From Bacteroidota bacterium (GTDB taxonomy: Bacteria; Bacteroidota; Bacteroidia; CAILMK01), in assembly GCA_013288555.1 (NCBI GenBank), contig JABDBQ010000010.1, positions 2,030 through 66,029 on the forward strand: a stretch of DNA of 64,000 nucleotides. The letters are read 5' to 3'. The translations under genes and the position numbers were made by a program. This document shows, piece by piece, positions 8,917-58,601 of this stretch (its first letter is position 1; every line of letters begins with the position of its first letter). Below the pieces are notes generated by a model that saw only the letters and a list, made by a program, of their open reading frames with translations, was not told where the DNA came from and did not search any database.

Positions 8917-9097
8917 TTCCCACCCCCTACCCCCGCCAGCGAGGGACAGCTTTAACTTGCTTTATCAGGTAATTTGATATTAATATTTCATATCATCTTT
9001 TTGATGGACAAAGAGATATTGCACAAAAATTTAAAAAATGGTGGTTAATAGCTGTCCCTCCCGAGTACTCGGGACAGGGGTTGGTGCTTTCACCAAC
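8917..9097. repeat. MITE-like intergenic structure: two copies of the CCCGA-hairpin element around an AT-rich core, plus a 7-bp stem hairpin
   Basis: A 16/17-bp IR with one mismatch, GAGGGACAGCTTTAAC (8941-8956) / GTTAATAGCTGTCCCTC (9044-9060). Perfect 16-bp palindrome TCCCGAGTACTCGGGA at 9059-9074. Hairpin GTTGGTG-cttt-CACCAAC at 9080-9097. It sits between convergent genes. Confidence 0.6.
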
Positions 9098-14306: not shown

Positions 14307-14343
14307 AATGAGGCAATTTGAAAATGAATTTCATTGCCTCATT
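14307..14343. terminator. Hairpin between convergent genes (11-bp perfect stem AATGAGGCAAT / ATTGCCTCATT, 15-nt loop)
   Basis: Arms at 14307-14317 and 14333-14343. The right arm overlaps the stop codon of the minus-strand ORF ending at 14339. There is no strong U-tract, so terminator function is inferred. Confidence 0.5.
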
Positions 14344-15790
14344 GTCTTATTGGCTCATTTTCAAATAGTTTTTCAATTTCATTTAGTAACCAGATGGCGT
14401 TGACAACGTTTTTGGTTTCGATCACCGTTTGCTTCAAGGCTTTGATTTTATTATTGTTGTGCCTGCGCTCATAAGGCAGCATGATTTTATACACAAAGGC
14501 TTTCCGGGCAAATTTCAGCAGGTTGCTATATGTATCAAAAGTATCGGTTGAAATAAGTTTGTTCCTGCTGAGATAGGCTTTGAATGTGGTAATTAATGCA
14601 AAAAAAGACTCTTCCTCATCCAGTTCAAAATAGATTTTGAGCAGCATGGACTTAGAATCCAGGTTATAGTAAACGTCCTTAAAATCAACAGATTGCAATA
14701 AGCGGGTTGCTTTTTTATATTCCCTGGTTTCGTAATAATAGTTGGCCAGGTTATACGTATAGGCGTTTTCACGAACTTCTCCGGGCAATTCCGGTTTCAG
14801 CTCATTAATGATCTTATAGGTCCACTCATGATCTCCCAAACGCAAAGCAATAGAAACCATGTTTTTCAAATCCCACTGCAGGTTTTTGTTATTTGCCTTC
14901 ATAAGCCCTATCTCATGCATATATTTATATATATCAAGCAATTCATTGTAAAACTTTGACACACCGCTGTTTACTTTCCTTATACAATAGTTTTGAAGGT
15001 ATCCGTATAGAGACCGTTGTTCGTCCTGTTCAAAAAGTTGAATATGCTTAGTAACGTCATCTTTCAAAACATTAAAATGCTCCATATTATTGGGGTCCTT
15101 GAGCATAACCAGAATACGGTAATAAATTGAAATGGAAGGTATTACGGTATACTTTTCAAAATTTAATTTTACGATTTCCAATAACTCATCCAGCATGTTA
15201 AATTCATAATCTATGGCCAGAATGCGTTTCCGGTTCATCATTTCACAACTGTCCCTGAGTTTGGCAGATAAATAAAAGATATCCAGCTGATCCACTTTTT
15301 TCTGAAGGCTTTCATCCCCTTGTATTCTCGCCTGATCAAGGAAAATTTTATCAGCCTCCGCCTGGTACTGGAATTCTTCATAATAATAATTGCTGTCACG
15401 ATATGGCTTTTGACTGCTCATTTCCAGAATATCTTTTTGGACAACAGAATACAACTCTTCCAGTTGATTGACTCTGATATAATTGAGGAGGTTAAGTTTT
15501 TGATTCCATTGCTGTTCTGTATATTGTTCTTCGCTCAGAAACGTCTCCATTAATCGCAGAGATTTATACATCAGATCAGGAATTCTGCGCTCTTCGAAAA
15601 TTTTACCCGGGTAAAGTTTTGAATAGATCTCTTCTTTCGAAACATTGAATTTTCCCGGACAAATCAATTTTACAAAGCCTGTAATCTCCTCATTTTTATT
15701 AAAATATGGCGATTGCAAAAAGTCAAGAAACCTTAATTGCTGCTGCTTATTCAGCTTTTGAAGCGTTTTATAAAATTTGCTCTGTTCCAT
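14339..15790 (-). CDS. Uncharacterised all-alpha TPR-like cytoplasmic protein (partner A of giant T9SS protein)
   Basis: 483 aa with no signal peptide or TM segment, colinear with paralog 20617-22065. Shared blocks include SPYFNKNEE, KLNLLNYIRVN, FYLSAKLRDSCEMMNRKRIL, DEQRSLYGYLQNYCIRKVNSG and FKDVYYNLDSKSMLLKIYFE. TPR-like NLANYYYET...KKAT. Confidence 0.75.
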   Translation of the reverse strand: MEQSKFYKTLQKLNKQQQLRFLDFLQSPYFNKNEEITGFVKLICPGKFNVSKEEIYSKLYPGKIFEERRIPDLMYKSLRLMETFLSEEQYTEQQWNQKLNLLNYIRVNQLEELYSVVQKDILEMSSQKPYRDSNYYYEEFQYQAEADKIFLDQARIQGDESLQKKVDQLDIFYLSAKLRDSCEMMNRKRILAIDYEFNMLDELLEIVKLNFEKYTVIPSISIYYRILVMLKDPNNMEHFNVLKDDVTKHIQLFEQDEQRSLYGYLQNYCIRKVNSGVSKFYNELLDIYKYMHEIGLMKANNKNLQWDLKNMVSIALRLGDHEWTYKIINELKPELPGEVRENAYTYNLANYYYETREYKKATRLLQSVDFKDVYYNLDSKSMLLKIYFELDEEESFFALITTFKAYLSRNKLISTDTFDTYSNLLKFARKAFVYKIMLPYERRHNNNKIKALKQTVIETKNVVNAIWLLNEIEKLFENEPIRQ

Positions 15791-15978: not shown

Positions 15979-18900
15979 ATGAAAACAACTAACTTTTCAC
16001 TCAATATGAAAGCACAAATCAACCCCACCCGGGCTCGCAGGTTTCAATTAAATCTAGCAGCCATCCTGCTTTTAATTATTCTCTTTAATGGCTTCAAAAC
16101 CCATGGCCAAAAAGTCAAAAACTTTGCCGCCAATCAGCCCTTCCTTTTTGAAGAAAACAAAGGACAGCTAATGGATGAATCCGGGAATACACTTTCAGAC
16201 ATTAAATACTATGGAAAACAGGGAGATGTATACGTATACTGCAAACCCGGCATGTTGAGTTTTGTTTTCACAAAGATTGAAAAGCAAGCAAATGATGTTT
16301 CCGAGGCAACAGGTATGGAAACGGGATCCCCCTTTGGAAAGCATGTCCCGACTTATTCGGGAGGGGCAGGGGGATTTAAGCGCTCTTCCCACGCCGCACT
16401 CCACGCTTCTGTTTCCACTTCACGAATGGACCTCGTTCTCCTTGGCTCCAATCCCACCCCGTTAATCTCCGCCACAGACCAACAGGAATATTATGAAAAT
16501 TTCTATATCAGTGGGGATGCCAATCGCGAAATCACGAATGTACACACCTATAAAAAAGTTATTTATAAAAACATATATCCGAATATCGACATGCTGCTCA
16601 ATATTGCCAATAAAGGCATGGAATATTCCTTTTTGGTACACCCAGGCGGAAAGGTGAATAATATAAAATTGAGATGGGATGGAGCTGAGAAAGAAGAAGC
16701 TCTAAAAAATGGCGGTATCAAATATGCCAATATTTCGGGAAGCATGGAAGAGAGTGCACCGAAGAGTTTTGTGGATGGGAAAACAATTCAGAGCAGGTTT
16801 TTTAAGGACGGAACTCAGTTCAGTTTTAGAGTAGAAAATTATGATAAGAAAAAAGATTTATTAATTGATCCAACATTAGAATGGGCGACGTATTATGGGG
16901 GGAGTAATATTGATGGATCAAATTGCGTATCAGTTGATAAATTAGGGAATATTGCCATTTGTGGTACTACGGTATCAACATCCGGTATTGCTACTACTGG
17001 ATCATTTCAGTCAACATATTTATATTATTCAGGAGGGTCTGCATATGACGCATTTATTGCCACATTCAGTAACGATGGAAAAAGGCGCTGGGCAACATAT
17101 TATGGATCCTATTTTTCGACTTATGGTCTAATGGGACTAGCATTTGACGGATCCGGAAATGTATATCTTGGAGGAAGTACCGATCAACAAAGCAATATTG
17201 CAACTTCTGGCGCTTACCAAACAACAACAAATTATCAGGATGCGTATCTGGTTAAGTTTGATACTAGTGGTTACAGGCTGTGGGGAACATATTTCGGCGG
17301 AAATTATATTACAAATCTTACAGGAGTTGCTACGGATTCCTCAAATAATGTGTATATAACCGGATTAACCAGAAGTACTACTAATATAGCTACAAATGGG
17401 GCCTATCAAACTTCCATGGCAGGAGGGACAAGTTATGGTGATGCTTTTTTGGCAAAATTCAGCTCAAGCGGTTCAATAATCTGGTCGACCTATTTTGGCG
17501 GTTCCAGCGATGACCTGCCATTTTCAGTGTCAGTTGACAGACTTCAGAATATTTATATAACAGGTCAAACTTCCAGTACAAATGGTATTGCTACATCGGG
17601 GGCTTATAGAACTTATTACAATGGAGGTAATCAATGCGATGGCTTTTTAACAAAATTTAATACAAATGGAGGATTGACCTGGTCTACTTATTTTGGTGGA
17701 CTCGGCTCTGAAGGGGCCGGATTTAAAACTGCAATTGATCGCATTGGCAATATTTATTTAACAGGAATTGCAACAAATTCAGGTTTAGCTACTAGCGGCG
17801 CTTTCAAAACTAATTTCAGCGGCAATGGTGAAGGATTTTTAGCAAAATTTAATACTTCAGGTTACCCCAAATGGGTAACCTATTATGATGGAGGGATTGA
17901 AGGCGTGGTAGTAGATGACACAGGAAACATCTTTATAACAGGCGGAACCCAGAGCACAACCGGAATGACTACGAAATATGCATATCAATCCACACCAACC
18001 AACTTATATCTTGCGCAATTTGACAGCTCGGGCTCGCGACTTTGGGGAACTTATTATGGTTGGGTTGGCACTCCAAATTATGATGAAGTTTTTGGAATTG
18101 CCTGTGACAAATGGAACCATATTTATATTACTGGATTTACAACCAATTCATCAGGGATTTCAACTAAGTATAGTTATCAGCCGTCATATGGAGGGGGCGA
18201 GGATGCATTCTTAGCCAGATTCAAGCTTTGGGCTCATAATGATGCTGGGATAGATTCAATTCAAATCCCAAATGTTAACTGTGCTGATAGCTATCAGGTA
18301 AAAGTAGTATTAAAAAATTACGGATTAAATCCCCTGAAAAAGGTTAACATTCGATTGGATATTAATAGCGATTCATCAAAAACATACCCATGGACCGGAA
18401 ATTTGCAAATGGATAGTTCCGCTTTTGTCAACATGGGATATTTCAATTTTAAACCAGGTAAAGATTCAGTTCGTGTATGGACATCAATGCCCAATGGAGT
18501 TATTGATTCTATTCCACAAAATGATTCTGCGATGGTTATTGCTACTGTTAATTCTTTACCGAATGCTTACACCAGAGGCAATCTTACAATTTGTCAGGGG
18601 CCAGACAGTATTCCCATAGGAACAACATCAATTACCGGCCATACTTATTTGTGGACTTCCAAACCTTCGGGCTTTACCTCAAATATTGATGATCCATTTG
18701 TTAAACCAACAAAAACAACTACATATTACTTAACAGAAACGATTACTGCGACGGGATGTTCTGCTACAGATTCCTCAGTAATATCCGTTAATCCTATACC
18801 AACTGCAAATGCTGGAAAAAGCCGATCAATTTGCTATGGTTATGTTGATACCCTTGGCTCATCCGATGTACCGGGTGATACTTACGCATGGTTCGAATAT

Positions 18901-20535
18901 AATAAAGGGAATATATCTTCTTTAAGCAATCCTATAGTTAAACCAACTAAGACAACGAGGTATTACTTATTTGTAACTAATACCTATTCATGTGCTGATT
19001 CAGACTCAGTGACAATTACTGTCAACCCATTACCAACAGCAAATGCCGGTAAAGACACTTTGATATGTGCAGGAGATTCAGTTCAGTTAGGCGCCGAAAG
19101 TATAACAGGAGATAGTTATTCCTGGTCGGTGGGTCCGGATTCCGAATATAGCTCAACTCTTTCAAATCCTGTTGTTTATCCATTAAAACCCACAACCTAT
19201 TATCTCAGCGTAACAAATGTAAATACGGGCTGTAAAGGAAAAGCGACCGTTTCAGTGAAAGTTAACCCGATACCTTATGCAGATATTTATACTACTGATA
19301 GTGTTTTTTGCCTGTCAGATTCACTTACAGTTTATGACTCTGATACACAGTCAGTTTCTCATAAGTGGTACTTTGGAGATGGTGTTTCTGACACTGGTAA
19401 ATATCCGGCAAAGCATCATTACAAATCAGGAGGTGTATACCATATCTGGCTAAAAGTCACAAATACAACAGGTTGTTCTGATTCATCAGAAAAGACTATC
19501 TATGTTGATGGCTCCTGCGTCTGGCCAGGTGATGCCAACTACGATAAAGTGGATAACATCTATGATCTCCTTGCTATAGGTATTGCCTACAACGATACAG
19601 GAAGCAAAAGAACTGATACGACTACCCAATGGTATGCACATCCCTGCGTAGACTGGACTAAAAGTTTTAAATCGGGGGCAAACCACAAACATGCAGACTG
19701 CAACGGTGATGGAAAAGTAGACAGCCTGGACATGGCTGCCATTGTTAGGAATTACAGCAAATCACATTCAAAATCAGGTGGTTCCATCACCAGTGGCAAC
19801 CCTAATGATCCAGAACTGTCTTTATCGATTTCAAAAGACAGTGTGGGCACTTCGGATACTATATCTATAGAGATGAATCTCGGTACAGCCTCAAAATCCC
19901 TTAGCAACATATACGGTATCGCCTTAACAGTCACTTATGATCCGGTAAATACAGGCCGTGCCAAAAGTTTTTCAGCTGATTTTTCAAATTGCTGGATGGG
20001 AACAGTTGGTAAAAACCTGGTCTATCTTATTCATAATGATTCGATAAATGGTGTTATGGATATTGGTATTACCAGGACAGATCATAAGAACATATCAGGT
20101 TATGGTGAAATTGGTAAACTCACGATCATTATGCCGGATAATGTAGGTGGCAAAAGATTAATCAGGAAAGAATTACGATTTGGTTTGGAGAATATCAAGG
20201 CTATTGATAATGTGGAAGATGATATATCATTGTATACAGTTGGGGATTCCGTATTATTTTATGGCTATTCGAGTGGGATAGCGCCTCTAACCAATACTGA
20301 TAATAATATACGTCTCTATCCCAACCCTGCCCAGTCCACGCTGCACTTAGATGCTGGAAAAGAATTAATTTCTGAAATCGGTATATCAGATATGCTGGGC
20401 AGAAATGTAATGACACTCAAATACAACCAGGTAGGGCAAACAGATATGAATATCGGCCGCCTTATTCCGGGTACTTATTTTATATATATTCTTACAGATC
20501 ATGGTTTTGCACGTTCGAGGTTTGTAAAAGAATAA
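15979..20535 (+). CDS. Giant secreted surface protein 1: N-terminal domain + SBBP beta-propeller repeats + CARDB-like + 3 Ig-like modules + PKD + dockerin-like + cohesin-like + T9SS C-terminal sorting domain
   Basis: 1518 aa. Signal anchor LAAILLLIILF. QPFLFEENKGQ N-domain. About 10 repeats of the type GIATSGAYQT...GG.DAFLAKF..SG...W(S/A)TY(F/Y)GG. NDAGI...KNYG (CARDB-like). PTANAGKD..IC.GDS...Y.W modules. YFGDG...GVYHIWLKVTNTTGCSDS (PKD). GDANYDKVDNIYD and DCNGDGKVDSLD loops. C-terminal LYPNPAQSTLHLD...GTYFIYILTD (T9SS type A CTD). Confidence 0.85.
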   Translation: MKTTNFSLNMKAQINPTRARRFQLNLAAILLLIILFNGFKTHGQKVKNFAANQPFLFEENKGQLMDESGNTLSDIKYYGKQGDVYVYCKPGMLSFVFTKIEKQANDVSEATGMETGSPFGKHVPTYSGGAGGFKRSSHAALHASVSTSRMDLVLLGSNPTPLISATDQQEYYENFYISGDANREITNVHTYKKVIYKNIYPNIDMLLNIANKGMEYSFLVHPGGKVNNIKLRWDGAEKEEALKNGGIKYANISGSMEESAPKSFVDGKTIQSRFFKDGTQFSFRVENYDKKKDLLIDPTLEWATYYGGSNIDGSNCVSVDKLGNIAICGTTVSTSGIATTGSFQSTYLYYSGGSAYDAFIATFSNDGKRRWATYYGSYFSTYGLMGLAFDGSGNVYLGGSTDQQSNIATSGAYQTTTNYQDAYLVKFDTSGYRLWGTYFGGNYITNLTGVATDSSNNVYITGLTRSTTNIATNGAYQTSMAGGTSYGDAFLAKFSSSGSIIWSTYFGGSSDDLPFSVSVDRLQNIYITGQTSSTNGIATSGAYRTYYNGGNQCDGFLTKFNTNGGLTWSTYFGGLGSEGAGFKTAIDRIGNIYLTGIATNSGLATSGAFKTNFSGNGEGFLAKFNTSGYPKWVTYYDGGIEGVVVDDTGNIFITGGTQSTTGMTTKYAYQSTPTNLYLAQFDSSGSRLWGTYYGWVGTPNYDEVFGIACDKWNHIYITGFTTNSSGISTKYSYQPSYGGGEDAFLARFKLWAHNDAGIDSIQIPNVNCADSYQVKVVLKNYGLNPLKKVNIRLDINSDSSKTYPWTGNLQMDSSAFVNMGYFNFKPGKDSVRVWTSMPNGVIDSIPQNDSAMVIATVNSLPNAYTRGNLTICQGPDSIPIGTTSITGHTYLWTSKPSGFTSNIDDPFVKPTKTTTYYLTETITATGCSATDSSVISVNPIPTANAGKSRSICYGYVDTLGSSDVPGDTYAWFEYNKGNISSLSNPIVKPTKTTRYYLFVTNTYSCADSDSVTITVNPLPTANAGKDTLICAGDSVQLGAESITGDSYSWSVGPDSEYSSTLSNPVVYPLKPTTYYLSVTNVNTGCKGKATVSVKVNPIPYADIYTTDSVFCLSDSLTVYDSDTQSVSHKWYFGDGVSDTGKYPAKHHYKSGGVYHIWLKVTNTTGCSDSSEKTIYVDGSCVWPGDANYDKVDNIYDLLAIGIAYNDTGSKRTDTTTQWYAHPCVDWTKSFKSGANHKHADCNGDGKVDSLDMAAIVRNYSKSHSKSGGSITSGNPNDPELSLSISKDSVGTSDTISIEMNLGTASKSLSNIYGIALTVTYDPVNTGRAKSFSADFSNCWMGTVGKNLVYLIHNDSINGVMDIGITRTDHKNISGYGEIGKLTIIMPDNVGGKRLIRKELRFGLENIKAIDNVEDDISLYTVGDSVLFYGYSSGIAPLTNTDNNIRLYPNPAQSTLHLDAGKELISEIGISDMLGRNVMTLKYNQVGQTDMNIGRLIPGTYFIYILTDHGFARSRFVKE
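16324..16377 (+). repeat. Nested palindromic element embedded in-frame in giant gene 1
   Basis: GGATCCCCCTTTGGAAAG-CATGTCCCGACTTATTCGGGA-GGGGCAGGGGGATTT. The same element occurs intergenically at 31662-31716 (opposite orientation) and, without the inner 21-nt hairpin, at 58566-58601. Here it encodes ...GSPFGKHVPTYSGGAGGFK... Confidence 0.8.
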
Positions 20536-20616: not shown

Positions 20617-22065
20617 TTATTGGGCATCTTCCATCAATTTATCCGTTTCTTTTAAAAGCCAGGCAAGATTGATTACATTTTTCGAACGGGTCAGTTTGTC
20701 ATTCAATGTCCTGATTTTATGAGAACTATGCCTGCGTTGATAGGGAAGCATCGTCTTGAATACAAATGCTTTCCTGGCAAATTTTAAAAGATTGCTGTAA
20801 GCCAGATGGGTATCTGTTGAAATCAACCTGTTTCTGGTGAGAAAAACCTGAAAAGTATTGACAAGGGCAAAAAATGCTTCTTCTTCATCCTGCTCAAAGT
20901 ATATTTTCAGTAGCATCGATTTGGAATCCAGGTTATAATACACGTCTTTAAAATCGACAGAATGAAGAAGAAGGGTCGCTTTTCTGAAATTTTTGGTTTC
21001 GTAATAATAATTGGCAAGATTATATGCGTATGCATTTTCAGACACCTCTTCGGGCAGCCTTGTTTTCAAAGTTTCGACAATGTCTAACGCCCTCTCGTAT
21101 TTGCCAAGTCGCAAAGCCACCGAAACCATGTTCTTAAGTTCCCATTGCAGATTTTTATTATCAGGGTCCATAAGCCCGATAAGCAGCATATGCTCATAGA
21201 TATCAAACAATTCACTATAAAATGCCGCAGCACCGCTGTTTACTTTTCGTATGCAGTAATTTTGAAGATAGCCGTACAGCGAACGTTGTTCGTCCTGGGG
21301 AAATAACCCGATGTTTTGCTGAAATTCTTCCTGCAGCTTTCTGAAATGCCCGGTATCTTCCGGTTCCCTGAGCATGAGCAGGATTCTGAAATATACTGAG
21401 ATGGCAGGATAATCTTTATATCTCTCAAAATCAGCCTTAATGGCTTCAATAAGGTTATTGAGCAGGTGAAATTCATAGTCAATGCTAAGAATCCTTTTTC
21501 GGTTCATCATTTCACAACTGTCTCTCAGCTTTGCCGAGAGATAAAAAAGATCAAGCCTGTCCACTTTTTTCTGGAGGTTTTCATCTCCTTTGATCTGTGC
21601 CTGGTCGAGAAAAATTTTATAGGCCTCCGACTGGTACATGAATTCCTCATAAAAATAATTACTATCCCTGAACTGCTTTTTAGAACTTAACTCCTGTATC
21701 TCCCGCTGCACCACGCTGTTAAGATCTTCCAGTTCATTTACTCTTATGTAATTAAGCAGATTCAATTTGCGATCCCATGTTTGTGTAGCGTATTGTTCTT
21801 CAGTCAAAAATTCTTCGAGCAGCTTGAGTGATTTGTACAAAAGATCATGCAACCTTCTCGCATCAAATGGCTTACCGGGATATAAAAATTCATAGATTTT
21901 TTTTGGATCATGACTTGCTTTGCCTTGCCGGATCAATGCAACAAATTGCCGAACCTCCTCATTTTTATTAAAATATGGAGAATTTAGAAACTCGATATAC
22001 CGCCTTTGACTGACTTTATCCAGTTTGTCATACGTTTTAATAAATTTACTCTGGTCCATATCCAA
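20617..22065 (-). CDS. Uncharacterised all-alpha TPR-like cytoplasmic protein (partner B, paralog of 14339-15790)
   Basis: 482 aa. Colinear with 14339-15790 and roughly two-thirds identical by eye. Same divergent arrangement with a giant T9SS gene. Confidence 0.75.
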   Translation of the reverse strand: MDMDQSKFIKTYDKLDKVSQRRYIEFLNSPYFNKNEEVRQFVALIRQGKASHDPKKIYEFLYPGKPFDARRLHDLLYKSLKLLEEFLTEEQYATQTWDRKLNLLNYIRVNELEDLNSVVQREIQELSSKKQFRDSNYFYEEFMYQSEAYKIFLDQAQIKGDENLQKKVDRLDLFYLSAKLRDSCEMMNRKRILSIDYEFHLLNNLIEAIKADFERYKDYPAISVYFRILLMLREPEDTGHFRKLQEEFQQNIGLFPQDEQRSLYGYLQNYCIRKVNSGAAAFYSELFDIYEHMLLIGLMDPDNKNLQWELKNMVSVALRLGKYERALDIVETLKTRLPEEVSENAYAYNLANYYYETKNFRKATLLLHSVDFKDVYYNLDSKSMLLKIYFEQDEEEAFFALVNTFQVFLTRNRLISTDTHLAYSNLLKFARKAFVFKTMLPYQRRHSSHKIRTLNDKLTRSKNVINLAWLLKETDKLMEDAQ

Positions 22066-22248: not shown

Positions 22249-25200
22249 ATGAAAACAACTAACTTTTCACTCAATATGAAAGCGCATATCAAAATCAACC
22301 CTGCCGACAGATTTCATTCAATTCTGAAGGTAGTCCTGTTTCTGATTCTTTTACTTAAAGGATTACAAACCGAGGCTCAATCCGTTAAAAACTTTGCTAC
22401 TACCCAGCCCTTCTTATTCGAAGAAAACAAAGGACAGCTTAGGGATGAAAACGGGAATGCGCTTTCAGATATCAAATATTATGGAAAACAGGGAGGTGTA
22501 TATATATACTGCAAACCTGGCATGCTGAGTTTCGTATTCACCAAGTCAGAAAAAGAGCCAAATGATATTTCAGAGGCAACTGGGATGCCTGTTTCAGACC
22601 TAGGGGTTCACAATCCTGAATCCATACACGGAAATCAGCGCTCTCCGCTCTCCGCTCTTCGCACTTCTATCACCGCCTCCCGTATGGACCTCGTTCTCCT
22701 CAACTCCAACCCCAATCCTTTAATCACCGCCTCAGACCAACAGGAATATTTTGAAAACTTCTATACCATCGGAGATGCAGATCATGGCATCACCAATGTA
22801 CACACCTATAAAACCCTTATATACAAAAATATATACCCGAATATTGACATGCTGCTCAATGTTGCTGAAAAGGGAATGGAATATTCTTTTTTAGTACACC
22901 CCGGCGGAAATGTGAGCGATATTAAACTGAGATGGAATGGCGCAGAGAAAGAAGAAGCATTGAAAAATGGCGGAATAAAATATGCTAATATGTTGGGGAG
23001 CATGGAAGAAAGTGCACCAAAGAGTTTTGCGGATGGGAAAATGATACAAACAAGTATTTTCAAGGAAGCAAAACAATTCAGTTTTAAAGTAGGACGATAT
23101 AATAAGGGAAAAAAACTATTAATTGACCCCACATTGGTCTGGGCTACGTATATCGGTGGACCCAATTCAAATGCTGGTGGAATAAAGTTAGATGCCGCAG
23201 GAAATTTATACATTGCAGGCACTACAACCCTCGACAACTATTTAACTACCTCTGGTGCATACCAAACATCTTATGGTGGGAATAATGATATTTTCCTTGC
23301 AAAGTTTAGCAACGACGGAAAGCGTCTATGGGCTAGTTATTATGGCGGTTCTGATCAGGATCTTGGTGCTGATTTGAATCTGGATATTCATGGAAATATT
23401 TATATTACTGGAAATACTAAAAGCAGTAATGGTATTGCTACTTCTGGCGCATTTAAAACTTCGTATCCCGGAGGATGGTACGATCCGTTTCTTGCAAAAT
23501 TTAGCAATTCGGGCAATCTGATCTGGGCAACTTATTTTGGAGGCTCCAACTATGATGAATCTGCAAGCGTTGGAACCGACTCTTCTGGGAATGTATATAT
23601 TGGAGGCTGGGCAAGCAGCACTAGTGGGATAGCAACATCTGGTGCACAGCAGACTTATCCTCAAGGAGGGGCAGACGCTTTTCTCGCAAAATTTAATAGT
23701 TCTGGCAGTTTAACATGGGCCACGTATTATGGAGGTTCTGGGCAGGATTATTTATATGGAATGAGCACAGATGCTAAAGGCAATTGTTATTTGACAGGCA
23801 CCACAACTAGTAGTAGTGGAATTGCATTTTCGGGATTTCAAAGCAATTATTATGGCGATACTGATTTTAATGGTACTGTTACTTATGGTGGTGATGCCTT
23901 TCTGGCAAAATTTAATAGCTCTGGACGTCTCCAATGGGGAACATATTACGGTGGGAGCGGTGGCGATGATGCTTCAGGTGTGACGACTGACACTAAAGGA
24001 AACGTTTATATAACAGGCTCAACCACCAGTTTAGGCCGAATTGCAACTACAGGTGCTTTTCAAACTTCGCGAAGTGGGGATGCAGATGGTTTTCTAGTTA
24101 AATTTAACAGCTCCGGGTCACGAATTTGGGGAACATATTATGGAGGTAACTGGAATGCTAACTTAGGCGGAATATCTTTGGACTCAAAGGGTAATATTTA
24201 TTGCACAGGATCAACAAATAGTGATAGTGGAATCGCGACAGTAGGAGCATATGAGACTTCAAATAAATCAGGTCACCAAGATATAATTCTTGCGAAATTC
24301 AACAATACCGGGAACCGCATCTGGGCGACTTATTTAGGAGGAAATGGTACTGATGATGCAGGTGAATCGGTAATCGATTCATCAGGTAATCTTTATTTTA
24401 CAGGTTCTAGTCAAAGTACTGACTTAGCAACTTATAATGCATATCAATCCAATATTGAAACTTTTGGTAATTATTTCGGCATAATAGCAAAATTTACACT
24501 TAATACATATCAAAATGACGCAGGCATTTTGCCAACTCTTGATTCTGTTTCATTTTGTAAAACGCAAAATATATTTGTCCGCCTGAAAAATTTCGGCGGT
24601 AAAGACCTTGATTCAGTCAAAGTTGGTTTATCTATTAATCATAAATTTCAAACTAAATATAATTGGACGGGGAAATTGAAACCTGATAGTACAGTTATTG
24701 TTGATATCGGGAGTTTTTCATTCAATACCGGTCATGATACTGTAATTGCCTGGACTTTGAAACCCAATGGATTATTAGATTCACTTCAGGGTAATGATAC
24801 AGCAATTATCAGTCTTACTCAGAAAGCAAATGCTGGCGGCAACTTTACAATTTGTAGTGGTGGTTCTATTAGAATAGGTTCAAATCCTATAAGCGGCCGT
24901 TCATATTCATGGACTTCAATTCCTGCCGGTTTTACGTCTACAATAAGTGATCCCTATGTAAACCCTCATAAGAATACAACTTATTATCTAATTGAGACGA
25001 TTAATGCCACAGGATGTTCCGATACAGATTCATCGTCAGTTGTTTTATTACCGAATGCAAGAGCAAGTTTTTCCTACAAAACCGGATGTGTTGGAGAAAC
25101 TACAATTTTTATAGATTCGAGCTCATTAGCAAAATCCTATTTTTGGTATTTTGGTGATCATTCTGGTTCCTCTGATTCAAGTATGCATCTTTTACATTTG

Positions 25201-26550
25201 TACAATGATACAGGAACTTATTCTGTTTTTTTGAAGGTGACTAATTCTGACGGTTGTTCTGATTCAATTTCAAAAAATATTACACCCAGACCAAAACCTA
25301 AAGCAGAATATTCTTTTAATAATGTTTGTCCGGGTGATAGTATATCTTTTGTAAATAAAAGCTCAAAATCAAATTCCTATTATTGGGATTTTGGAGACGG
25401 AACATCTTCAACCGATTCAACTCCACCAAAACACTTATATTCGAAATTGGGATCTTATGATGTAAGTTTGGTAGTTATTAATTCAGCTAATTGTGCGGAT
25501 TCAATTTCAAAAACGGTTATGATTTCTCCCTGCGTCTGGCCGGGGGATGCCAACTATGATAAAGTTGATAATATCTATGACCTCCTTGCTATTGGAATCG
25601 CTTATAACGATACTGGCTTTAAAAGAACAGATACCACCACGCAATGGTATGCCCATCCCTGTATGGATTGGAGCAAAAATTTTAAATCGGGTGCAAACCA
25701 CAAACATGCTGATTGTAACGGCGATGGAAAAGTGGATAGCCTTGATATGGCTGCCATCGTAAGGAATTACAGCAAATCACATTCAAAGTCTGGTGGTTCG
25801 ATTACAAGCGGCAACCCAAATGATCCTGCTTTATCTTTATCGATTTCCAAAGACAGTGTTGGCACATCTGATACCATCACTGTACAAATGAATCTCGGGA
25901 CGGCCACGAAAAGCATGAGCAATATTTATGGAATCTGCTATACTGTGACGTATGATCCGGTAAATGTCGGCCGTGCCAAAAGCTTTTCAGCAGATTTTTC
26001 AAATTGCTGGATGGGAACAGTCGGTAAAAACCTGGTCTATCTTGTTCATAACGATTCGGTAAATGGGGTTATGGATATCGGCATAACCAGGACAGATCAT
26101 AAGAATGTATCGGGCTATGGCGAAATTGGTAAACTAACCATTATTACACCCGATAATGTGGGTGGCAAAAGGTTAATCAGGAAAGAACTACGCTTCGGCT
26201 TAGAGAATATCAAAGCCATTGATAATGTGGAAGATGATGTATCATTATATATAGTTGGGGATTCCGTATTATTTTATGGCTATTCAGCTGGTATAGCACC
26301 TCAAACTAATATTGATAATAATATACATCTCTATCCCAACCCTGCACAATCCACAATGCACATAGACGCAGGAAAGGAACTGATTTCTGAAATCGGGATA
26401 TCAGATATCCTGGGTAGAAAAGTAATGACCCTGAAACATGATCAGGTCCGGCAAACAGATATGAACATCAGCAGCCTTATTCCGGGCACTTATTTTATAT
26501 ATATTCTTACAGATCATGGTTTTGCACGTTCGAGATTTGTGAAAGATTAA
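22249..26550 (+). CDS. Giant secreted surface protein 2 (SBBP repeats + CARDB-like + 1 Ig-like module + 3 PKD + dockerin-like + cohesin-like + T9SS CTD)
   Basis: 1433 aa. The N-terminal ~290 aa and C-terminal 339 aa are colinear with gene 1. The centre is divergent, with three PKD-like units (FGDHSG...VFLKVTNSDGCSDS; WDFGDGTSS...VSLVVINSANCADS). Confidence 0.85.
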   Translation: MKTTNFSLNMKAHIKINPADRFHSILKVVLFLILLLKGLQTEAQSVKNFATTQPFLFEENKGQLRDENGNALSDIKYYGKQGGVYIYCKPGMLSFVFTKSEKEPNDISEATGMPVSDLGVHNPESIHGNQRSPLSALRTSITASRMDLVLLNSNPNPLITASDQQEYFENFYTIGDADHGITNVHTYKTLIYKNIYPNIDMLLNVAEKGMEYSFLVHPGGNVSDIKLRWNGAEKEEALKNGGIKYANMLGSMEESAPKSFADGKMIQTSIFKEAKQFSFKVGRYNKGKKLLIDPTLVWATYIGGPNSNAGGIKLDAAGNLYIAGTTTLDNYLTTSGAYQTSYGGNNDIFLAKFSNDGKRLWASYYGGSDQDLGADLNLDIHGNIYITGNTKSSNGIATSGAFKTSYPGGWYDPFLAKFSNSGNLIWATYFGGSNYDESASVGTDSSGNVYIGGWASSTSGIATSGAQQTYPQGGADAFLAKFNSSGSLTWATYYGGSGQDYLYGMSTDAKGNCYLTGTTTSSSGIAFSGFQSNYYGDTDFNGTVTYGGDAFLAKFNSSGRLQWGTYYGGSGGDDASGVTTDTKGNVYITGSTTSLGRIATTGAFQTSRSGDADGFLVKFNSSGSRIWGTYYGGNWNANLGGISLDSKGNIYCTGSTNSDSGIATVGAYETSNKSGHQDIILAKFNNTGNRIWATYLGGNGTDDAGESVIDSSGNLYFTGSSQSTDLATYNAYQSNIETFGNYFGIIAKFTLNTYQNDAGILPTLDSVSFCKTQNIFVRLKNFGGKDLDSVKVGLSINHKFQTKYNWTGKLKPDSTVIVDIGSFSFNTGHDTVIAWTLKPNGLLDSLQGNDTAIISLTQKANAGGNFTICSGGSIRIGSNPISGRSYSWTSIPAGFTSTISDPYVNPHKNTTYYLIETINATGCSDTDSSSVVLLPNARASFSYKTGCVGETTIFIDSSSLAKSYFWYFGDHSGSSDSSMHLLHLYNDTGTYSVFLKVTNSDGCSDSISKNITPRPKPKAEYSFNNVCPGDSISFVNKSSKSNSYYWDFGDGTSSTDSTPPKHLYSKLGSYDVSLVVINSANCADSISKTVMISPCVWPGDANYDKVDNIYDLLAIGIAYNDTGFKRTDTTTQWYAHPCMDWSKNFKSGANHKHADCNGDGKVDSLDMAAIVRNYSKSHSKSGGSITSGNPNDPALSLSISKDSVGTSDTITVQMNLGTATKSMSNIYGICYTVTYDPVNVGRAKSFSADFSNCWMGTVGKNLVYLVHNDSVNGVMDIGITRTDHKNVSGYGEIGKLTIITPDNVGGKRLIRKELRFGLENIKAIDNVEDDVSLYIVGDSVLFYGYSAGIAPQTNIDNNIHLYPNPAQSTMHIDAGKELISEIGISDILGRKVMTLKHDQVRQTDMNISSLIPGTYFIYILTDHGFARSRFVKD

Positions 26551-26629: not shown

Positions 26630-29600
26630 ATGAAAGTACAAATCAACCCCACCCTGGCACACAGGTTTCATTTAAATCTAATAGCCATTTTGTTATTAGC
26701 TGTTCTTTTTAATGCCTTCAATTCACAGGCGCAAAAGGTTAAAAACTTCAATACTTCTCAGCCATTCCTCTTTGAAGAGAACAAGGGACAACTGATGGAT
26801 GAAAGCGGGAATGCGCTTAGTGATATTAAATATTATGGAAAGCAGGGAGGTGTATATGTGTATTGCAAGTCCGGCATGTTGAGTTTTGTTTTCACAAAGA
26901 TTGAAAAGGGACAAGATGATGTTTCCGAGGCAACAGGTATGGAAACGGAATCCCCCTTTGGAAAGCATGTCCCGACTTATTCGGGAGGGGCAGGGGGATT
27001 TAAGCGCTCTTCGCTCTCCGCTCTTCACACTTCTATCACTGCCTCCCGCATGGACCTCGTTCTCCTTGGCTCCAACCCCACCCCTTCAATCACCGCCACT
27101 GACCAGCAGGAATACTATGAAAACTTCTACACCGGCGGAGATGCGAACCATGGCATCACCAATGTACACACCTATAAAACCCTTACCTATAAAAACATAT
27201 ACCCGAATATTGATATGAATCTGAATGTTGCCAAAAATGGTATTGAATATTCCTTTTTAGTCCATCCCGGAGGCAATGTAAGCGATATAAAATTGCGATG
27301 GAATGGGGCTGAGAAAGAAGAAGCACTGAAAAATGGAGGGATTAAATATGCCAATACGTTGGGAACATTGGAAGAGAGTGCGCCAAAGAGTTTTGTGGAA
27401 GGGAAATTGGTGAAAAGCATATCTGTTAAAAAAGGATTGGAATATAGTTTTGAGGTTGGAGGCTATGATAAAAGAAAAGATTTGGTTATAGATCCGAGTT
27501 TAGTTTGGGGGACCTATTTTGGAGGGTCAACTGAAGAACTAATATATGGAATTACAACTGATAACTTAAAAAATATATATATTATCGGTGAATCTACCAG
27601 CAAAACTGGAATTACAACCACTGGCGCATTTGAAACAAGTACTCCGAGTACTAATAATGGTGCAGTGCTTTTGGCAAAATTTAATGAGAACGGAACACCA
27701 GCATGGGTAACATACTATGCCGGCAACTCTCAAGATTGGGGTCTTGCAATAACTACTGATTATTTAGGGAACCTTTATTTTACGGGCTATACGTACAGTA
27801 GTTCTGGAATTGCAACTAATGGCACTTATCAAACTTCAACCGTAGGAAATGGGTACTCGGATGTGTTTATTGCAAAGTTTAGTACAGATGGAATTCGTAA
27901 GTGGGGCACATATTTTGGAGGGGCAGGAGACGAATTTGGATTTGATATAAAGATGGACGGACATTCTAATCTGTACGTTACAGGAAAAACCAATAGTAAA
28001 TCTAACATTGCAACCAAAGGAGCATTTCAAACCAGTTTTTCAGGAAAGATTGACGCTTTTCTAGCGCGGTTCGATTCAAGCGGTAATTTGAATTGGGCGA
28101 CATATTTTGGTGCTGATAGTACAATTGGTGAAAAAATAGTTTCAGACTTATCAGGAAATGTTTTTCTGTCAGGAGTAACGGATAGTAACAGTGTTATTGC
28201 AACAAAAGGCGCATATCAGACTTCATATGGTGGAGGTAGAAATGATGCATTCATAGCTAAATTCAATAAAAACGGAAATAGAATATGGTCAACATATTTT
28301 GGAGGCAATTGCTGGGAGAGTTTTAATTCTTCTCAAGGAATTGTCGCTGATAAAAAGGGACATTTATATCTAAGCGGTGGGACATGCAGTCAGACAGGAA
28401 TTGCAACTGCTGGCGCATACCAAACCTCAATAGGGGGGGAAATGATGTTTATCTGGCTAAATTCGATACTAGTGGGAAAATAATATGGAGCACTTATTTT
28501 GGGGGACCGAACGCAGATGATGGATCCAATATTATTTTAGATTCATTTAATAATATTTATATTTCAGGATACACTCAAAGTACTTCGGGTATAGCAACAA
28601 CCGATGCATTTCAACCAACATATAGCAGTGGCTATAACAACACCTTTATTGCAAAATTTGATAATAATGGCTCAAGATTATGGGCTTCCTATTATGGTTT
28701 TAGCTGGTGTTATGGAATTGTCTGGTTAAATGATTATCAAATTTTAATCGCTGGATATGCGACAAATACCCCAGGAATCGCTACATCAGGTGCATTTCAA
28801 ACAAAATCAAAAGGCACTTGGAATGGTTTTATTGCGGATATAAATTTTAAAGTCAATAATGATGCAGGCATAAGTTCAATACCTTCCTCTAAAGGTGTTT
28901 TTTGTGGGAATTCTCAACAATTGAAGATATCATTAAAAAATTATGGTAATCATGAATTGGATTCCGTAAAAATTGGATGGTCGGTTAACAGCAAAGTTGT
29001 ATCATCGTATGCCTGGACTGGCAAGTTAAAATCAGACAGTTCAATTTCCGTAACTCTCGGCAGTTTTAAATTCCCAAATGGAACTGACACCATAAAAGTC
29101 TGGACCTATAACCCAAATGGCACTACCGATTCGACTCCGCAGAATGATTCCTCCTTTGCAATTATTACAGTCAATCCTACCCCATCCGCCAATGCGGGAA
29201 AAAACAGATCGGTATGCTTTGGAGTTATGGATACTATTGGCTCTTCATCAGTACCTAACGATGCTTATTTCTGGACTTCAAATCCAACAAGTGTAATTGG
29301 TTCGGTTAGCAATCCAGTAGTTAGTCCTGCTGTCACAACAACTTATTATCTCTACGAAACCAATTCATACGCATGTGTTGGTAAAGACTCAGTAACACTA
29401 ACTGTTAACCCATTGCCAACAGCAAATGCCGGAAAAGACACATTGGTTTGCTTTGGTGATTCGGTTTTTCTTGGCACTAAACCAGATACAGGTTATTCAT
29501 ACAGTTGGTCTTCAAGCCCTTCAGGTTTTAGGTCTATCCTTGCAAATCCCCGCCTAGTTCCAAAGTCCAGCGCTGCATATTATCTCTCGATTACTTCCAA

Positions 29601-30915
29601 TAGTACCGGCTGCACCGGGCTTGATACTGCATATGGTTCCGTCAACCCTCTGCCCCATGCCAGATTTTCAGTATCCGATACTCTTTTTTGTACACAGGAT
29701 TCGCTTGGTTTAATAGATTCATCAACCGGTGCGGTTTCTTATGTATGGACATTTGGGGATGGGACTACCGATACCGGCAAAAATATTCATAAACATCATT
29801 TTACAAAGACGGGCCCTTATCATATCCGGCTTATTGTTACCAATTCATCAGGGTGTTCAGATTCCACGAAAACCTGGGTGTATCCTGATGGTGACTGCGT
29901 CTGGCCCGGTGATGCCAACTATGATAAGGTTGACAATATTTACGATCTCCTTGCAATTGGTATTGGCTATAATAATAGTGAATATAATAGATTGGATACC
30001 ACCACCCAATGGTATGCGCATCCCTGCGAAGACTGGCATAAAAGCTTCAAATCCGGAACAAATTATAAACATGCGGATTGCAATGGCGATGGAATAATTG
30101 ACAGCCTGGATATAGCCGCCATCATACGGAATTACAGCAAATCACATTCAAAGTCCGGTGGTTCTATTACAAGCGGCAACCCGAATGACCCGGCTCTGTC
30201 TTTATCCATATCCAAAGATAGTGTTGGCACTTCAGATACCATATCTGTACAGATGAATCTCGGGACAGCCTCAAAATCCCTCAGCAATATTTATGGCATC
30301 TGTTATACTGTTACGTATGATCCGGTAAATGTAGGCCGCGCCAAAAGCTTTTCAGCAGATTTTTCGAATTGCTGGATGGGAACAGTTGGTAAAAACCTGG
30401 TCTATCTTGTTCATAACGATTCGGTAAACGGGGTTATGGATATCGGCATAACCAGGACAGATCATAAGAATGTATCAGGGTATGGCGAAATTGGTAAACT
30501 CACCATTATTACACCTGATAATGTGGGCGGCAAAAGGTTAATCAGGAAAGAACTTCGGTTTGGTTTTGAGAACATAAAAGCCATTGATAATGTGGAAGAT
30601 GATGTATCATTATATACAGTGGGAGATTCTGTATTATTTTATGGCTATTCAGCTGGTATAGCACCCCAAACTAATACTGATAGTAATATACATCTCTATC
30701 CCAACCCTGCACAATCCATATTGCACATAGACGCAGGAAAGGAACTGATTTCTGAAATCGGGATATCGGATATCCTGGGTAGAAAAGTGATGACTATGAA
30801 ATATGCTCAGGTCCGGCAAACAGATATGAACATCAATAGCCTTATTCCGGGTACTTATTTTATATATATTTTTACAGATCATGGTTTTGCACGTTCGAGA
30901 TTTGTGAAAGATTAA
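26630..30915 (+). pseudogene. Giant secreted surface protein 3, interrupted by a frameshift in a G7 tract (ORFs 26630-28483 and 28384-30915)
   Basis: The two ORFs are contiguous parts of one paralog. At 28433-28439 (GGGGGGG) the frame changes. With 8 G the reading is ...AYQTSIGGGNDVYLAKFDTSGKIIWSTYFGG, a canonical SBBP repeat, giving one 1428-aa ORF. Confidence 0.8.
26956..27010 (+). repeat. Nested palindromic element embedded in-frame in giant gene 3
   Basis: GGAATCCCCCTTTGGAAAGCATGTCCCGACTTATTCGGGAGGGGCAGGGGGATTT, near-identical to 16324-16377. Gene 2 has unrelated sequence at this position. Confidence 0.8.
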
Positions 30916-30980: not shown

Positions 30981-31360
30981 GTGAAACATTTTTAAAAATA
31001 TTTTTGCTTATAACTAAATGAATATAAATAAGATAAAAAATATTTTTGGAAATCACCCACCCAGTTTGGTACTTCACTATATATGTATATAAAAGGCGTT
31101 AGGCATCAGGAGTTAGGAGTTAGAGGCTGGCGCAAACAAATTGAACAAAATCCTCTTAATTCTAAAATCCTGTAAATCCTGATTCAGAAAAATATGAAAA
31201 AGATAAACCTTTGCTTTTTGGCATTCTCGATTGATCCCGAGTGCTCGGGACTGTTATTGTCTGATATTTGTCAATGAATTACGTGTAAATAACTAAATTT
31301 CAATAAGCTAAAAAATGAAAAAATGAATTTCCCTGTTAAAACAGTGAGAACACGTGTGCC

Positions 31361-31447
31361 GCCTGTCCCGCCTGTCCCGCCTGTCCCGACCTCTTCGGGG
31401 ACCTCTTCGGGGACTTATTCTGGGACTTCTTCGGGGACTTATCCGGG
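31361..31447. repeat. Tandem repeats: 9-mer GCCTGTCCC x3, then 12-mer GACYTNTTCGGG x5
   Basis: 9-mers at 31361-31387 and 12-mers at 31388-31447. The units are the two arms of the CCTGTCCCGA-loop-TCGGGA hairpin element amplified separately. ORF 31323-31517 is just their translation. Confidence 0.85.
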
Positions 31448-31661
31448 AAGCCAGAATGCTCAGAATGGCTTTTCCAAAAAAAACAAAACCGGCATAACAC
31501 TATTTGGCAAAGTGTAACCCCGGTTTAAAACTTAAATATTTCATTATCAATATAATATAAAAAATATTATCAGGCCAAAAACAAGAAAAAATGTTACCCT
31601 TAATGCTTGTTTTAAACAGGATGAAACGGTACGCAGGAAGGGTGCTGTGCTAAAACAAAAA

Positions 31662-31716
31662 TCCCCCTACCCTCCCGAGTAATCGGGACAGGCACTTTGG
31701 AAAGGGGGAATCCCTA
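31662..31716. repeat. Nested palindromic element, intergenic copy (opposite orientation to the copies in the giant genes)
   Basis: TCCCCCTACCCTCCCGAGTAATCGGGACAGGCACTTTGGAAAGGGGGAATCCC. The inner hairpin is TCCCGA-GTAA-TCGGGA at 31673-31688. Confidence 0.8.
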
Positions 31717-31830
31717 CTTTCTCCTCATTTGATAATTTCAACATTGTCTCATTGTTTAATTCCCAATTTCAAGTTTCAAATTACATCTCACTTCTTACTT
31801 CTCACCTCTTACTATTACCTTTGCCCTAAG

Positions 31831-58540: not shown

Positions 58541-58601
58541 AATTAATTGTTCCACTTTCGATTTTCGGGAATCCCCCTTTAGAAAGGGGGCAGGGGGATT
58601 C
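58541..58601 (+). repeat. Repeat unit AATTAAT-N4-CCACTTTCGA-N-GGAATCCCCCTTT-NN-AAAGGGGG(CAGGGGGATT), copy L (downstream of pyc)
   Basis: Contains the hairpin CCCCCTTT-ag-AAAGGGGG and an alternative pairing GAATCCCCC/GGGGGATTC. It may serve as the pyc terminator but has no clear U-tract. Confidence 0.7.

Follow-up and report, generated by a model that had tools for sequence, protein, structure and literature searches.

Short palindromic repeats lie in frame in a predicted disordered loop of DUF7948 proteins in a soil Bacteroidota bacterium

We analysed a window of 64,000 nt from the genome of a soil Bacteroidota bacterium (assembly GCA_013288555.1, contig JABDBQ010000010.1, here C10, positions 2030-66029); coordinates below are those of the window unless another contig is named. 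The window contains three paralogous giant genes, two of which, genes 1 and 3, carry in frame a 55-nt nested palindrome, GG(G/A)ATCCCCCTTTGGAAAGCATGTCCCGACTTATTCGGGAGGGGCAGGGGGATTT, that differs between them at 1 of 55 positions. The palindrome belongs to a repeat family found mostly between genes, and the predicted disordered loop of the DUF7948 domain that holds it is occupied in other paralogues by other palindromes. The explanation that we favour, and consider probable, is that these are selfish repeats similar to the Rickettsia palindromic elements (RPE), which a permissive loop tolerates, the loop serving as a landing pad whose occupants turn over.

The host genome is a draft of 2.84 Mb in 102 contigs with 39.7% G+C, and the organism is the sole species of its genus among the genomes searched. 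Because the draft is 67.5% complete, repeat counts given for it are lower bounds. Its map of open reading frames (ORFs) is crude, with 2207 ORFs covering 88% of the genome and 12% of the DNA without long ORFs.

Nested palindromes in two of three giant genes

The three genes, defined by ORF, translation and Pfam matches, are:

15979..20535, plus strand: gene 1, a 1518-aa secreted giant protein
22249..26550, plus strand: gene 2, a 1433-aa paralogue
26630..30915, plus strand: gene 3, a paralogue in two ORFs (26630-28483 and 28384-30915) with a frameshift in a G7 run near 28433-28439

Their domain architecture, which is of the Bacteroidota type, runs from a signal peptide through DUF7948, SBBP beta-propeller repeats, Ig_7, PKD and a dockerin-like segment to the Por_Secre_tail of the type IX secretion system (T9SS). 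The N-domain (PF25778) matched with E = 1e-40 to 1e-46, and PF25778, SBBP and Por_Secre_tail were all above Pfam cut-offs. The closest matches in named genomes were to a "Bacteroidota bacterium" metagenome-assembled genome and to an uncultured Chitinophaga.

The element consists of an outer module, C5-loop-G5-CA-G5 (AATCCCCC..GGGGGCAGGGGGATT), in which a C-run, a loop, a G-run, CA and a second G-run follow each other. In the long forms a hairpin of 17-21 nt that we call PAL, (C)TG-TCCCGA-CTTMTT-CGGGA, is nested within this module at one of two positions, after GGGGGCA in subtype A1 and before GGGCAGGGGGATT in subtype A2. Subtype A2 includes genes 1 and 3, the copy at 31659 and most of the remaining long copies between genes. 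The copies in the window are:

16323..16377, plus strand: composite nested palindrome of subtype A2, in frame in gene 1, encoding (T)GSPFGKHVPTYSGGAGGF(K) in a loop modelled with confidence below 50
16346..16362, plus strand: PAL core hairpin TCCCGA-CTTAT-TCGGGA nested in the gene 1 copy, encoding VPTYSG
26947..27001, plus strand: composite nested palindrome of subtype A2, in frame in gene 3, with its PAL core at 26970-26986
31659..31714, minus strand: inverted intergenic A2 copy, 15 nt upstream of a TTG start at 31729, with its PAL core at 31673-31688
58570..58600, plus strand: intergenic short form without PAL, AATCCCCC-TTTAGAAA-GGGGG-CA-GGGGGATT

An earlier reading of the window from its sequence only (the sequence-only reading) had placed one element in frame in genes 1 and 3 and in non-coding DNA. 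Both genic copies were recovered, with the gene 3 coordinates given there (26956-27010) 9 nt too high, and the two non-coding copies are indeed intergenic, the inverted one being ~80% identical to the genic element. The palindrome match is beyond chance: ATCCCCC-N12-45-GGGGGAT occurred 13 times in the genome and TCCCGA-N4-6-TCGGGA 110 times, against 0 for the reversed control of each pattern. No Rfam family matched at gathering thresholds over the whole window, or near the element at E <= 1.

Nucleotide alignment of the three genes showed conserved flanks, ..GAGGCAACAGGTATG on one side and GCGCTCT.. on the other, around a segment of 66 nt in genes 1 and 3 and 54 nt in gene 2. The 12-nt difference and the conserved flanks had been read correctly; the gene 2 segment, taken then for unrelated sequence, is a decayed copy of another palindrome, described below. 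The peptide and reading frame of the insert were also as first translated. The predicted tryptic peptide from the gene 1 element is HVPTYSGGAGGFK, with paralogue versions GAPVPTSSGGGFD.., and, in line with the several open frames noticed earlier, two additional frames stay open through the element, one per strand. Folded as RNA, the composite gave the stable hairpin that had been expected (-27.3 to -27.7 kcal/mol), with z-scores against dinucleotide shuffles of only -1.7 to -1.8, which are modest because the segment is G+C-rich.

The insert falls in a predicted disordered loop

We modelled residues 41-309 of gene 1 with AlphaFold2 from a 22-sequence alignment, with a mean predicted local distance difference test score (pLDDT) of 79 and a predicted template-modelling score of 0.74. 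Construct residues 64-101 (NDVSEATGMETGSPFGKHVPTYSGGAGGFKRSSHAAL; insert and tail) had pLDDT <50 and no secondary structure, and lay between strands 52-62 and 103-115, whose flanking blocks scored 92 and 97. The low scores place both the element peptide and the peptide of the heptamer tract behind it in a disordered connection. In the alignment this loop ranges from near 0 (paralogue C20, locus L005) to ~50 aa. According to the model, then, the insert is located in a hypervariable, disordered loop between two beta-strands of the DUF7948 N-domain. For the fold itself there was no match in the PDB at E <= 0.001; the hits, all of them weak, were to beta-sandwich domains from glycoside phosphorylases and GH92 enzymes.

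The position of the insert bears on whether it is part of the protein at all. Its absence from the mature protein, through a downstream start, through bypass or removal as in T4 gene 60 and mitochondrial byp, or because the genes are pseudogenes, seems to us extremely improbable. Upstream of the insert lie the coding sequences for the signal peptide and for the fold's first four strands, which rules out a start of the ORFs downstream of it, and the Pfam match and the model continue through it. A stable hairpin (-27 kcal/mol), the frameshift farther downstream in gene 3 and an apparent one in paralogue C21 would suit such a scenario, but the insert is in frame and stop-free in every carrier, unlike in programmed bypass, with no stop behind a take-off codon, and six carriers keep ORFs of 1183-1518 codons.

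A dispersed and mostly intergenic repeat family

Searching the host genome for PAL (TCCCGA-N3-8-TCGGGA) returned 111 loci, against 0 for the reversed control. As many as 85 of them (77%) lie outside ORFs, though non-ORF DNA makes up 12% of the genome, and several of the 26 mapped inside ORFs precede the true start (for example on contigs C52 and C49). The outer-module family has ~28 copies, 9 of them genic: the 19 long copies comprise 8 genic ones, all in DUF7948 genes, and 11 intergenic ones, and the 9 short copies comprise 1 genic and 8 intergenic.

With 8 of 19 long copies inside one gene family, the intergenic copies might be decayed fragments of that family, an idea to which we give next to no credence. 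Their BLAST matches stop at the element ends, no tblastn hit of DUF7948 coincides with any intergenic outer-module copy in the host genome, and none of their flanks is homologous to genes of the family; therefore the intergenic copies are not gene fragments. Copies also occur in unrelated genes, and both the short module and PAL-type hairpins occur in many other genomes and phyla. PAL counts ranged from 0 to 96 across 30 relatives, and the short form was found exactly in >117 contigs of many Bacteroidota, Myxococcota, Desulfobacterota, Spirochaetota and others. The genome search called for by the sequence-only reading thus shows an element that is not confined to the gene family.

Several unrelated genes of the host carry copies in frame. 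In ispG (C12:5850-5866), PAL is part of a 39-nt perfect palindrome, AAAGTTGTCAATCCCGAAAAAATCGGGATTGACAACTTT, read as KVVNPEKIGIDNF. In nuoM (C38:7542-7557), it encodes the hexapeptide VPSTRD, which is missing in the orthologues of five same-family genomes; this absence is the cleanest empty-site evidence obtained. A membrane protein gene has one in-frame copy, and in Y1-transposase-like genes (PF01797; C1:107031-107606 and C81:3199-3339) an in-frame PAL places VPTYSG directly before the HUH motif (MSNHVHL). Finally, two giant paralogues on C8 (12651-12680 and 65035-65100) carry different modules in the same CHU_C loop (T9SS type B), IPLAPLKGGIPS in one and IPLASRAIGTGSPKGEEA in the other, one being a short form and the other a PAL composite. 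The CHU_C loop on C8 makes a second hot spot of this kind, outside the DUF7948 family.

Repeated occupation of the loop among paralogues

The host genome encodes ~24 DUF7948 paralogues, and the loop, read directly after (V/I)SEATG, was readable in ~19 of them. Some palindromic module was present in at least 12 of these ~19. The loop contents are:

A2 composite: genes 1 and 3; peptide SPFGKHVPTYSGGAGGF
A1 composite: C77, C1_90743, C1_94560, C4_36670, C56 and C21; peptide ESPFxKGxPVPTSSGGGF
Type B with PAL (ctgtccc-TCCCGAGTACTCGGGA-cgggggtagggggtgg): C2_54057 and C43; peptide LSLPxxRDGGRGWKN
G-run short form: C1_23879 and probably C83
Degenerate remains: C4_51205 and C19
Nothing recognisable at the loop: four paralogues

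A second loop of DUF7948, between YYENYYT and GDAxHGIT, carries an antisense PAL (PNKSGQAG) in C4_36670, C21 and C1_23879; the C1_23879 copy is arm-iterated and read in frame as PNKSPNKSGQAGQAG.

All genic type-A copies are found at the first loop and share orientation and frame, and the short form (SPFxKGAGGF) occupies the same loop in homologues of other organisms. Both observations would be expected if a single ancient insertion in the ancestor of the family had been inherited vertically with ordinary divergence only. We regard that history as very unlikely. Among type-A carriers the element has 86% nucleotide identity, much more than the coding flanks (68-70%) or the adjacent linkers (62-66%). 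The A, B, gene-2 and VET kinds of module (the last two are described below) cannot be aligned with one another, and PAL sits at different positions in A1 and A2. With the loop columns excluded from the paralogue tree, the type-B carrier C2_54057 was nested with three A1 carriers (support 99/97), and genes 1-3 grouped with the nearest outside orthologues, L001 and L002, both of which are without the element. The approximately unbiased (AU) test, in which the groups were named after the first tree had been seen, rejected monophyly both for the A1 carriers (p = 0.004) and for all A carriers together (p = 3e-6), and did not reject a pair of genes 1 and 3 (p = 0.39).

Genes 1 and 3 are 0.90-0.93 identical over 16219-16398, a stretch of 180 nt around the element, and ~0.8 on both sides of it; the sequences fit a short conversion tract that carried the element. 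Across paralogues and orthologues, at least four kinds of palindromic module occur at the same loop. Judged from these sequences, the loop is a hot spot with repeated occupation, not the site of a single capture. The proposal that repeat DNA was captured in a coding loop accordingly stands as far as the mostly intergenic family, the disordered loop and the in-frame copies in unrelated genes are concerned, and gives way, on the AU test and the module kinds, where it implied one event.

The gene-2 palindrome and homologues in other organisms

Searching a protein collection with the DUF7948 N-domain gave 143 proteins at E <= 1e-20, and a metagenome scan gave 525 relatives, of which the best 80 were kept as loci with DNA (L numbers). 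Regular expressions on the protein loops found an element-type signature in ~50 of 102 anchored homologues, host paralogues included. Where loop DNA was at hand, a perfect stem of at least 6 bp was present in 18 of 26 loops, against 24% of control windows of equal length taken from the same genes, and one of at least 9 bp in 7 of 26, against 0 of 639 control windows.

The loops of these homologues hold several module types. SPFxKGAGGF is the short form (for example L042, AATCCCCCTttcaaagggggcAGGGGGATT); another type is LSPAGGGRGWKN; L081 has a VET-type palindrome, GTAGAGACAGGG-catg-CCCTGTCTCTAC; and in L060 and L061 PAL is nested in yet another module (..ALVPTYSGGDLG). A frequent type encodes the peptide VSDVGVQNxEPLHRK, and its DNA is a 46-nt palindrome with perfect 21-bp stems in L051 and L079, GTTTCC(G/A)ATGTAGGGGTTCAA-N4-TTGAACCCCTACAT(C/T)GGAAAC. 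Gene 2 has a copy of this third palindrome:

22591..22636, plus strand: decayed palindrome GTTTCCGAT-GTAGGGGTTCAA-N4-TTGAACCCCTAC-ATCGGAAAC in gene 2, encoding VSDLGVHNPESIHGN, with 13 of 26 arm positions still pairing

Decayed copies are also present in L054 and L058, and BLAST of the host genome with the gene 2 segment found no second copy. The 28-nt core, GTAGGGGTTCAA-N4-TTGAACCCCTAC, was found exactly in >120 contigs (loci L119-L238) from Saprospiraceae, Ignavibacteria, Deferribacteres, Nitrospirae, Planctomycetes, candidate phyla and others. Its outer arms are mostly variable yet complementary, and it sometimes lies within arm-iterated arrays; from its sequence contexts, it looks as if inserted in the loops of existing hairpins or terminators. 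We know of no description of this core palindrome.

Two details of this site concern its boundaries. The GGAAAC before the element of genes 1 and 3 was considered as a remnant of a gene-2-type palindrome and rejected, because type-A copies between genes are extended on the left in a similar way (RAAGGG-AATCCCCC). GTTTCCGA is repeated between the VSEATG codons and the gene-2-type palindrome's left arm; we could not make this repeat fit a target-site duplication.

Roughly one in two of the 102 homologues, which come from many metagenomes, has a palindrome at this one loop. That frequency, together with the stem enrichment given above, invites the thought that the hairpin is kept for a function in DNA or RNA. 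These would then be domesticated repeats, serving as a recombination or break hot spot among the ~24 paralogues or as an mRNA pause ~110 codons in, with the signal peptide already out. We think this unlikely, even though other findings point the same way: four intact copies keep perfect 15-22-bp stems despite two-arm changes that alter amino acids (D to N, R to W), the element is better conserved than its flanks, genes 1 and 3 share the local high-identity patch around it, and genomic instability has been reported to arise from intrastrand triplex motifs (PMC4666352). The palindromes at the site, however, are unrelated in sequence, and the same elements occur in intergenic DNA, in loops of unrelated genes, near C-termini and in the second loop. 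Decayed copies are tolerated (gene 2, L054, L058), and several paralogues and orthologues are without a palindrome or nearly without the loop (C20, L005). A recombination hot spot at the element would also sit away from the boundary between the constant and variable parts of genes 1-3, which is near residue 300. As for the perfect arms, they are also expected when a core inserts into an existing hairpin loop, as in the cross-phylum copies.

The heptamer tract behind the palindromes

Immediately downstream of the insert, each of the three genes has a tract of heptamers or its remains:

16380..16421, plus strand: degenerate heptamer-derived tail (RSSHAALHASVS) in gene 1, within the disordered loop
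22639..22659, plus strand: CGCTCTC CGCTCTC CGCTCTT in gene 2, encoding RSPLSAL
27005..27025, plus strand: CGCTCTT CGCTCTC CGCTCTT in gene 3, encoding RSSLSAL

Tandem Repeats Finder gave a period of 7 with 3.1-3.4 copies and scores of 37-41 at 22639-22662 and 27005-27026, below its default threshold of 50. The tract was thus present, weak and degenerate in gene 1, as noticed at first, and proved not to be peculiar to the three genes. Paralogue C21 has a perfect (CGCTCTC)x3 immediately 3' of its element, and at an intergenic locus on C13, between NifU-like and purM-like genes, CGCTCTC x5 stands right behind ..GGGGGCAGGGGGTGG, the end of a palindromic module. Perfect runs of three heptamers number only 12 in the host genome, 2 of which have the CGCTCTC unit. 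In homologues of other organisms RS(S/P)LSAL(R/H)xS(I/F)S recurs, mostly behind the gene-2-type palindrome; the heptamer codons of L051 are identical (CGCTCTT CGCTCTC CGCTCTC), and other homologues have purine-rich versions of the tail (RERETE..). We read the tract, from its sequence and settings, as a low-complexity "word" tail of the sort that accompanies such modules in intergenic DNA. We do not claim it as a phase-variation switch, for which a unit of 7, not a multiple of 3, would be suited, because there are 3 copies only and no length variants.

Proposed history of the loop

If these are RPE-like selfish repeats, the element would be translated as a flexible Pro/Gly/Ser-rich linker (..SPFGKHVPTYSGGAGGF..), as with the Rickettsia elements, and would persist because the loop accepts almost any sequence. 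A resident palindrome would then turn the loop into a landing pad in which later hairpins insert into the residents or replace them; such a preference for resident hairpins is suggested by PAL nested in larger modules and by core palindromes with variable complementary outer arms. Short gene-conversion tracts may spread elements among the paralogues, and copies would decay where they are unselected or not renewed. In genes 1-3, the older arrangement may have been a gene-2-type palindrome with a heptamer tail, kept in decayed form in gene 2, and in genes 1 and 3 the A2 composite would have replaced the palindrome ahead of the retained tail.

Several points weigh against this history. A search for RNA runs that hold the stretch gave none. 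Neither empty-site polymorphism nor target-site duplication was seen, so mobility is argued from distribution alone. Assembled contigs of two soil metagenomes, which break at the repeat, gave no empty-site or copy-number variants; de Bruijn assemblies break at repeats. The paralogue tree is poorly resolved, leaving 9 of its 18 inner branches open, and can be distorted by gene conversion; the incomplete draft makes the counts minimal ones. In addition, intact gene-2-type copies in four homologues have outer arms that differ yet are perfectly complementary (CCGAT/ATCGG, CCAAT/ATTGG, CTGAT/ATCAG, CTTGGT/ACCAAG). Such arms, and an element better conserved than its flanks, would equally fit selection for the hairpin itself; both are also expected from recent insertion into a local hairpin or from arm-to-arm copying.

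A bolder version of the landing-pad idea, which we put forward as a tentative possibility, is that the loop records structure-targeting mini-elements (PAL TCCCGA..TCGGGA, the GTAGGGGTTCAA..TTGAACCCCTAC core and the C5/G5/G5 modules) that insert into hairpin loops, nest in or replace each other and cross phyla, moved by enzymes not yet tied to the repeats. Alternatively or additionally, selection or arm-to-arm copying would keep the palindromes perfect, and these would act as break or recombination hot spots that diversify the surface-protein paralogues. Two of the modules are near letter-identical across phyla, which argues for horizontal spread by dedicated machinery. Candidate enzymes in the host genome may be GIY-YIG nucleases of small size, encoded next to the tRNA-Asp pseudo-copies that carry PAL, and DUF559 nucleases whose genes have related modules on their flanks. 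The DUF559 genes of the host genome (contigs C2 and C13) are flanked by C-run/G-run modules related to, but distinct from, type A; since these are different modules, the DUF559 link is one of analogy only.

Comparison with known repeats

The element is a nested, non-autonomous palindromic repeat with a smaller hairpin inside, and it resembles repetitive extragenic palindromic (REP) elements and the intrastrand-triplex motif (BoxC/TM). In-frame palindromic repeats are textbook knowledge for Rickettsia. We found no description in the literature of in-frame palindromes for these Bacteroidota elements or for DUF7948/T9SS proteins.

RPE are dispersed palindromes of ~100-150 bp, specific to Rickettsia, that lie between genes and in frame in ORFs that stay open (Ogata et al. 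2000, 2002, per PMC10969869 and PMC3733652). The repeats described here are likewise dispersed, both intergenic and in frame in ORFs staying open, and would add a peptide at fold-compatible positions. They differ in that each RPE copy is in a different gene, whereas here many units crowd one loop of one paralogous family; in that the units measure 17-55 nt, are nested and occur in Bacteroidota and elsewhere; and in having no match to Rickettsia RPE-1 to RPE-10.

A minority of REPs are in frame in known genes, where they encode 20-30 amino acids, and REPs carry GTAG or CGTC tags (Di Nocera et al., PMC3733652; PMC3116915). Like the REPs of the REP/REPIN system with its associated tyrosine transposases (RAYT), the present repeats are short G+C-rich stem-loops, mostly intergenic, with a minority in frame in known genes. 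Unlike them they have no GTAG/CGTC tag, their flanks being ..CCTG/ACTTG-TCCCGA.. and AATCCCCC.., and no RAYT association was found: of 6 PF01797 matches, the two strong ones, both good Y1-transposase genes, are flanked by ATCCC-GTTA-GGGAT hairpins and not by PAL or type A. In behaviour, then, these are repeats of the RPE and intragenic REP kind; judged by size, sequence, the GTAG/CGTC tag and RAYT association, they belong to neither family.

By sequence layout, the short form has the three blocks of BoxC/PIT triplex motifs, with a pyrimidine run, a loop, a purine run, a spacer and a second purine run, and it is similarly highly conserved and widespread among bacteria. The consensus of TMECO (BoxC/PIT) is CCCTCNCCC-N3-6-GGGNGAGGG-N3-GGGNGAGGG, reported as always intergenic, widespread and highly conserved (PMC4666352). 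Here the blocks are C5/G5/G5 (8 nt with AAT/ATT ends) and not the 9-nt CCCTCNCCC blocks, and copies are also coding, with nested hairpins. MITEs, or miniature inverted-repeat transposable elements, derive from an insertion sequence, have terminal inverted repeats with target-site duplications and measure 70-300 bp, against 17-55 nt here; no direct duplication recurs consistently at the ends of the genic copies, and no parent insertion sequence was identified. The small dispersed repeats of Nostoc and other cyanobacteria, which Elhai and colleagues are said to have described in 2008, are reportedly very small as well, nested in repeats or hairpins and occasionally in genes; they belong to another phylum and have other sequences.

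One protein loop that has been hit or overwritten by several unrelated hairpins across many species would offer a built-in time series of their arrival, nesting and decay. For annotation, the case calls for caution, since what looks in Bacteroidota surface proteins like a Pro/Gly-rich "linker" or a shadow ORF can be a translated repeat. If it is true that the hairpins promote recombination or pausing, they would also bear on the diversification of large adhesin-like families.

Neighbouring genes and further repeat arrangements

Other intergenic PAL copies in the window are:

9059..9074, strand not assigned: PAL hairpin in a type-B-like context (ctgtcccTCCCGAGTACTCGGGAcagggg)
31235..31250, strand not assigned: solitary PAL hairpin TCCCGAGTGCTCGGGA
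31355..31447, plus strand: arm-iterated PAL array, (TGTCCCGCC)x3.8 then (GACTTCTTCGGG)x4.4

Arm-iterated hairpins of this sort, in which a left half-arm (TGTCCCGCC)n is followed by a right half-arm (GACTTCTTCGGG)n, were also seen at C2:116460-116560 and C19:30596-30667. Type-B intergenic copies come in pairs ~132 nt apart. Inverted type-B pairs (ccaccccctaccccc..|..gggggtagggggtgg) at C13:38860-39060, C13:40478-40640, C32:12099-12260 and C32:14622-14780 look like a small MITE-type unit of ~170 nt. Many intergenic PAL copies are flanked by direct, not inverted, word repeats (TTGATCATT.., TTTGCACA.., TTAGCACA..), among them those at C29:6640-6720, C70:4600-4660 and C26:8340-8400; these are hints of target duplication or of word-repeat tails.

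At C58:9000-9560 there are two tRNA-Asp-like pseudo-copies with PAL in the variable loop, neither of which is called by ARAGORN. Each adjoins a small ORF that is GIY-YIG-like by eye, and an intact tRNA-Asp lies at 9772-9846.

The frameshift of gene 3 falls at 28430-28442, in a seven-G run (ATAGGGGGGGAAATG) where the upstream frame reads ..AYQTSIGG and the downstream frame GGNDVYLAKF. A contig of run X2 has the same G7. Possible causes are slippage at the homopolymer (phase variation), a pseudogene or an error of assembly. Finally, paralogous minus-strand ORFs of 482-483 aa, at 14339-15790 and 20617-22065, face giant genes 1 and 2 head to head; what duplicated was therefore a divergent gene pair.

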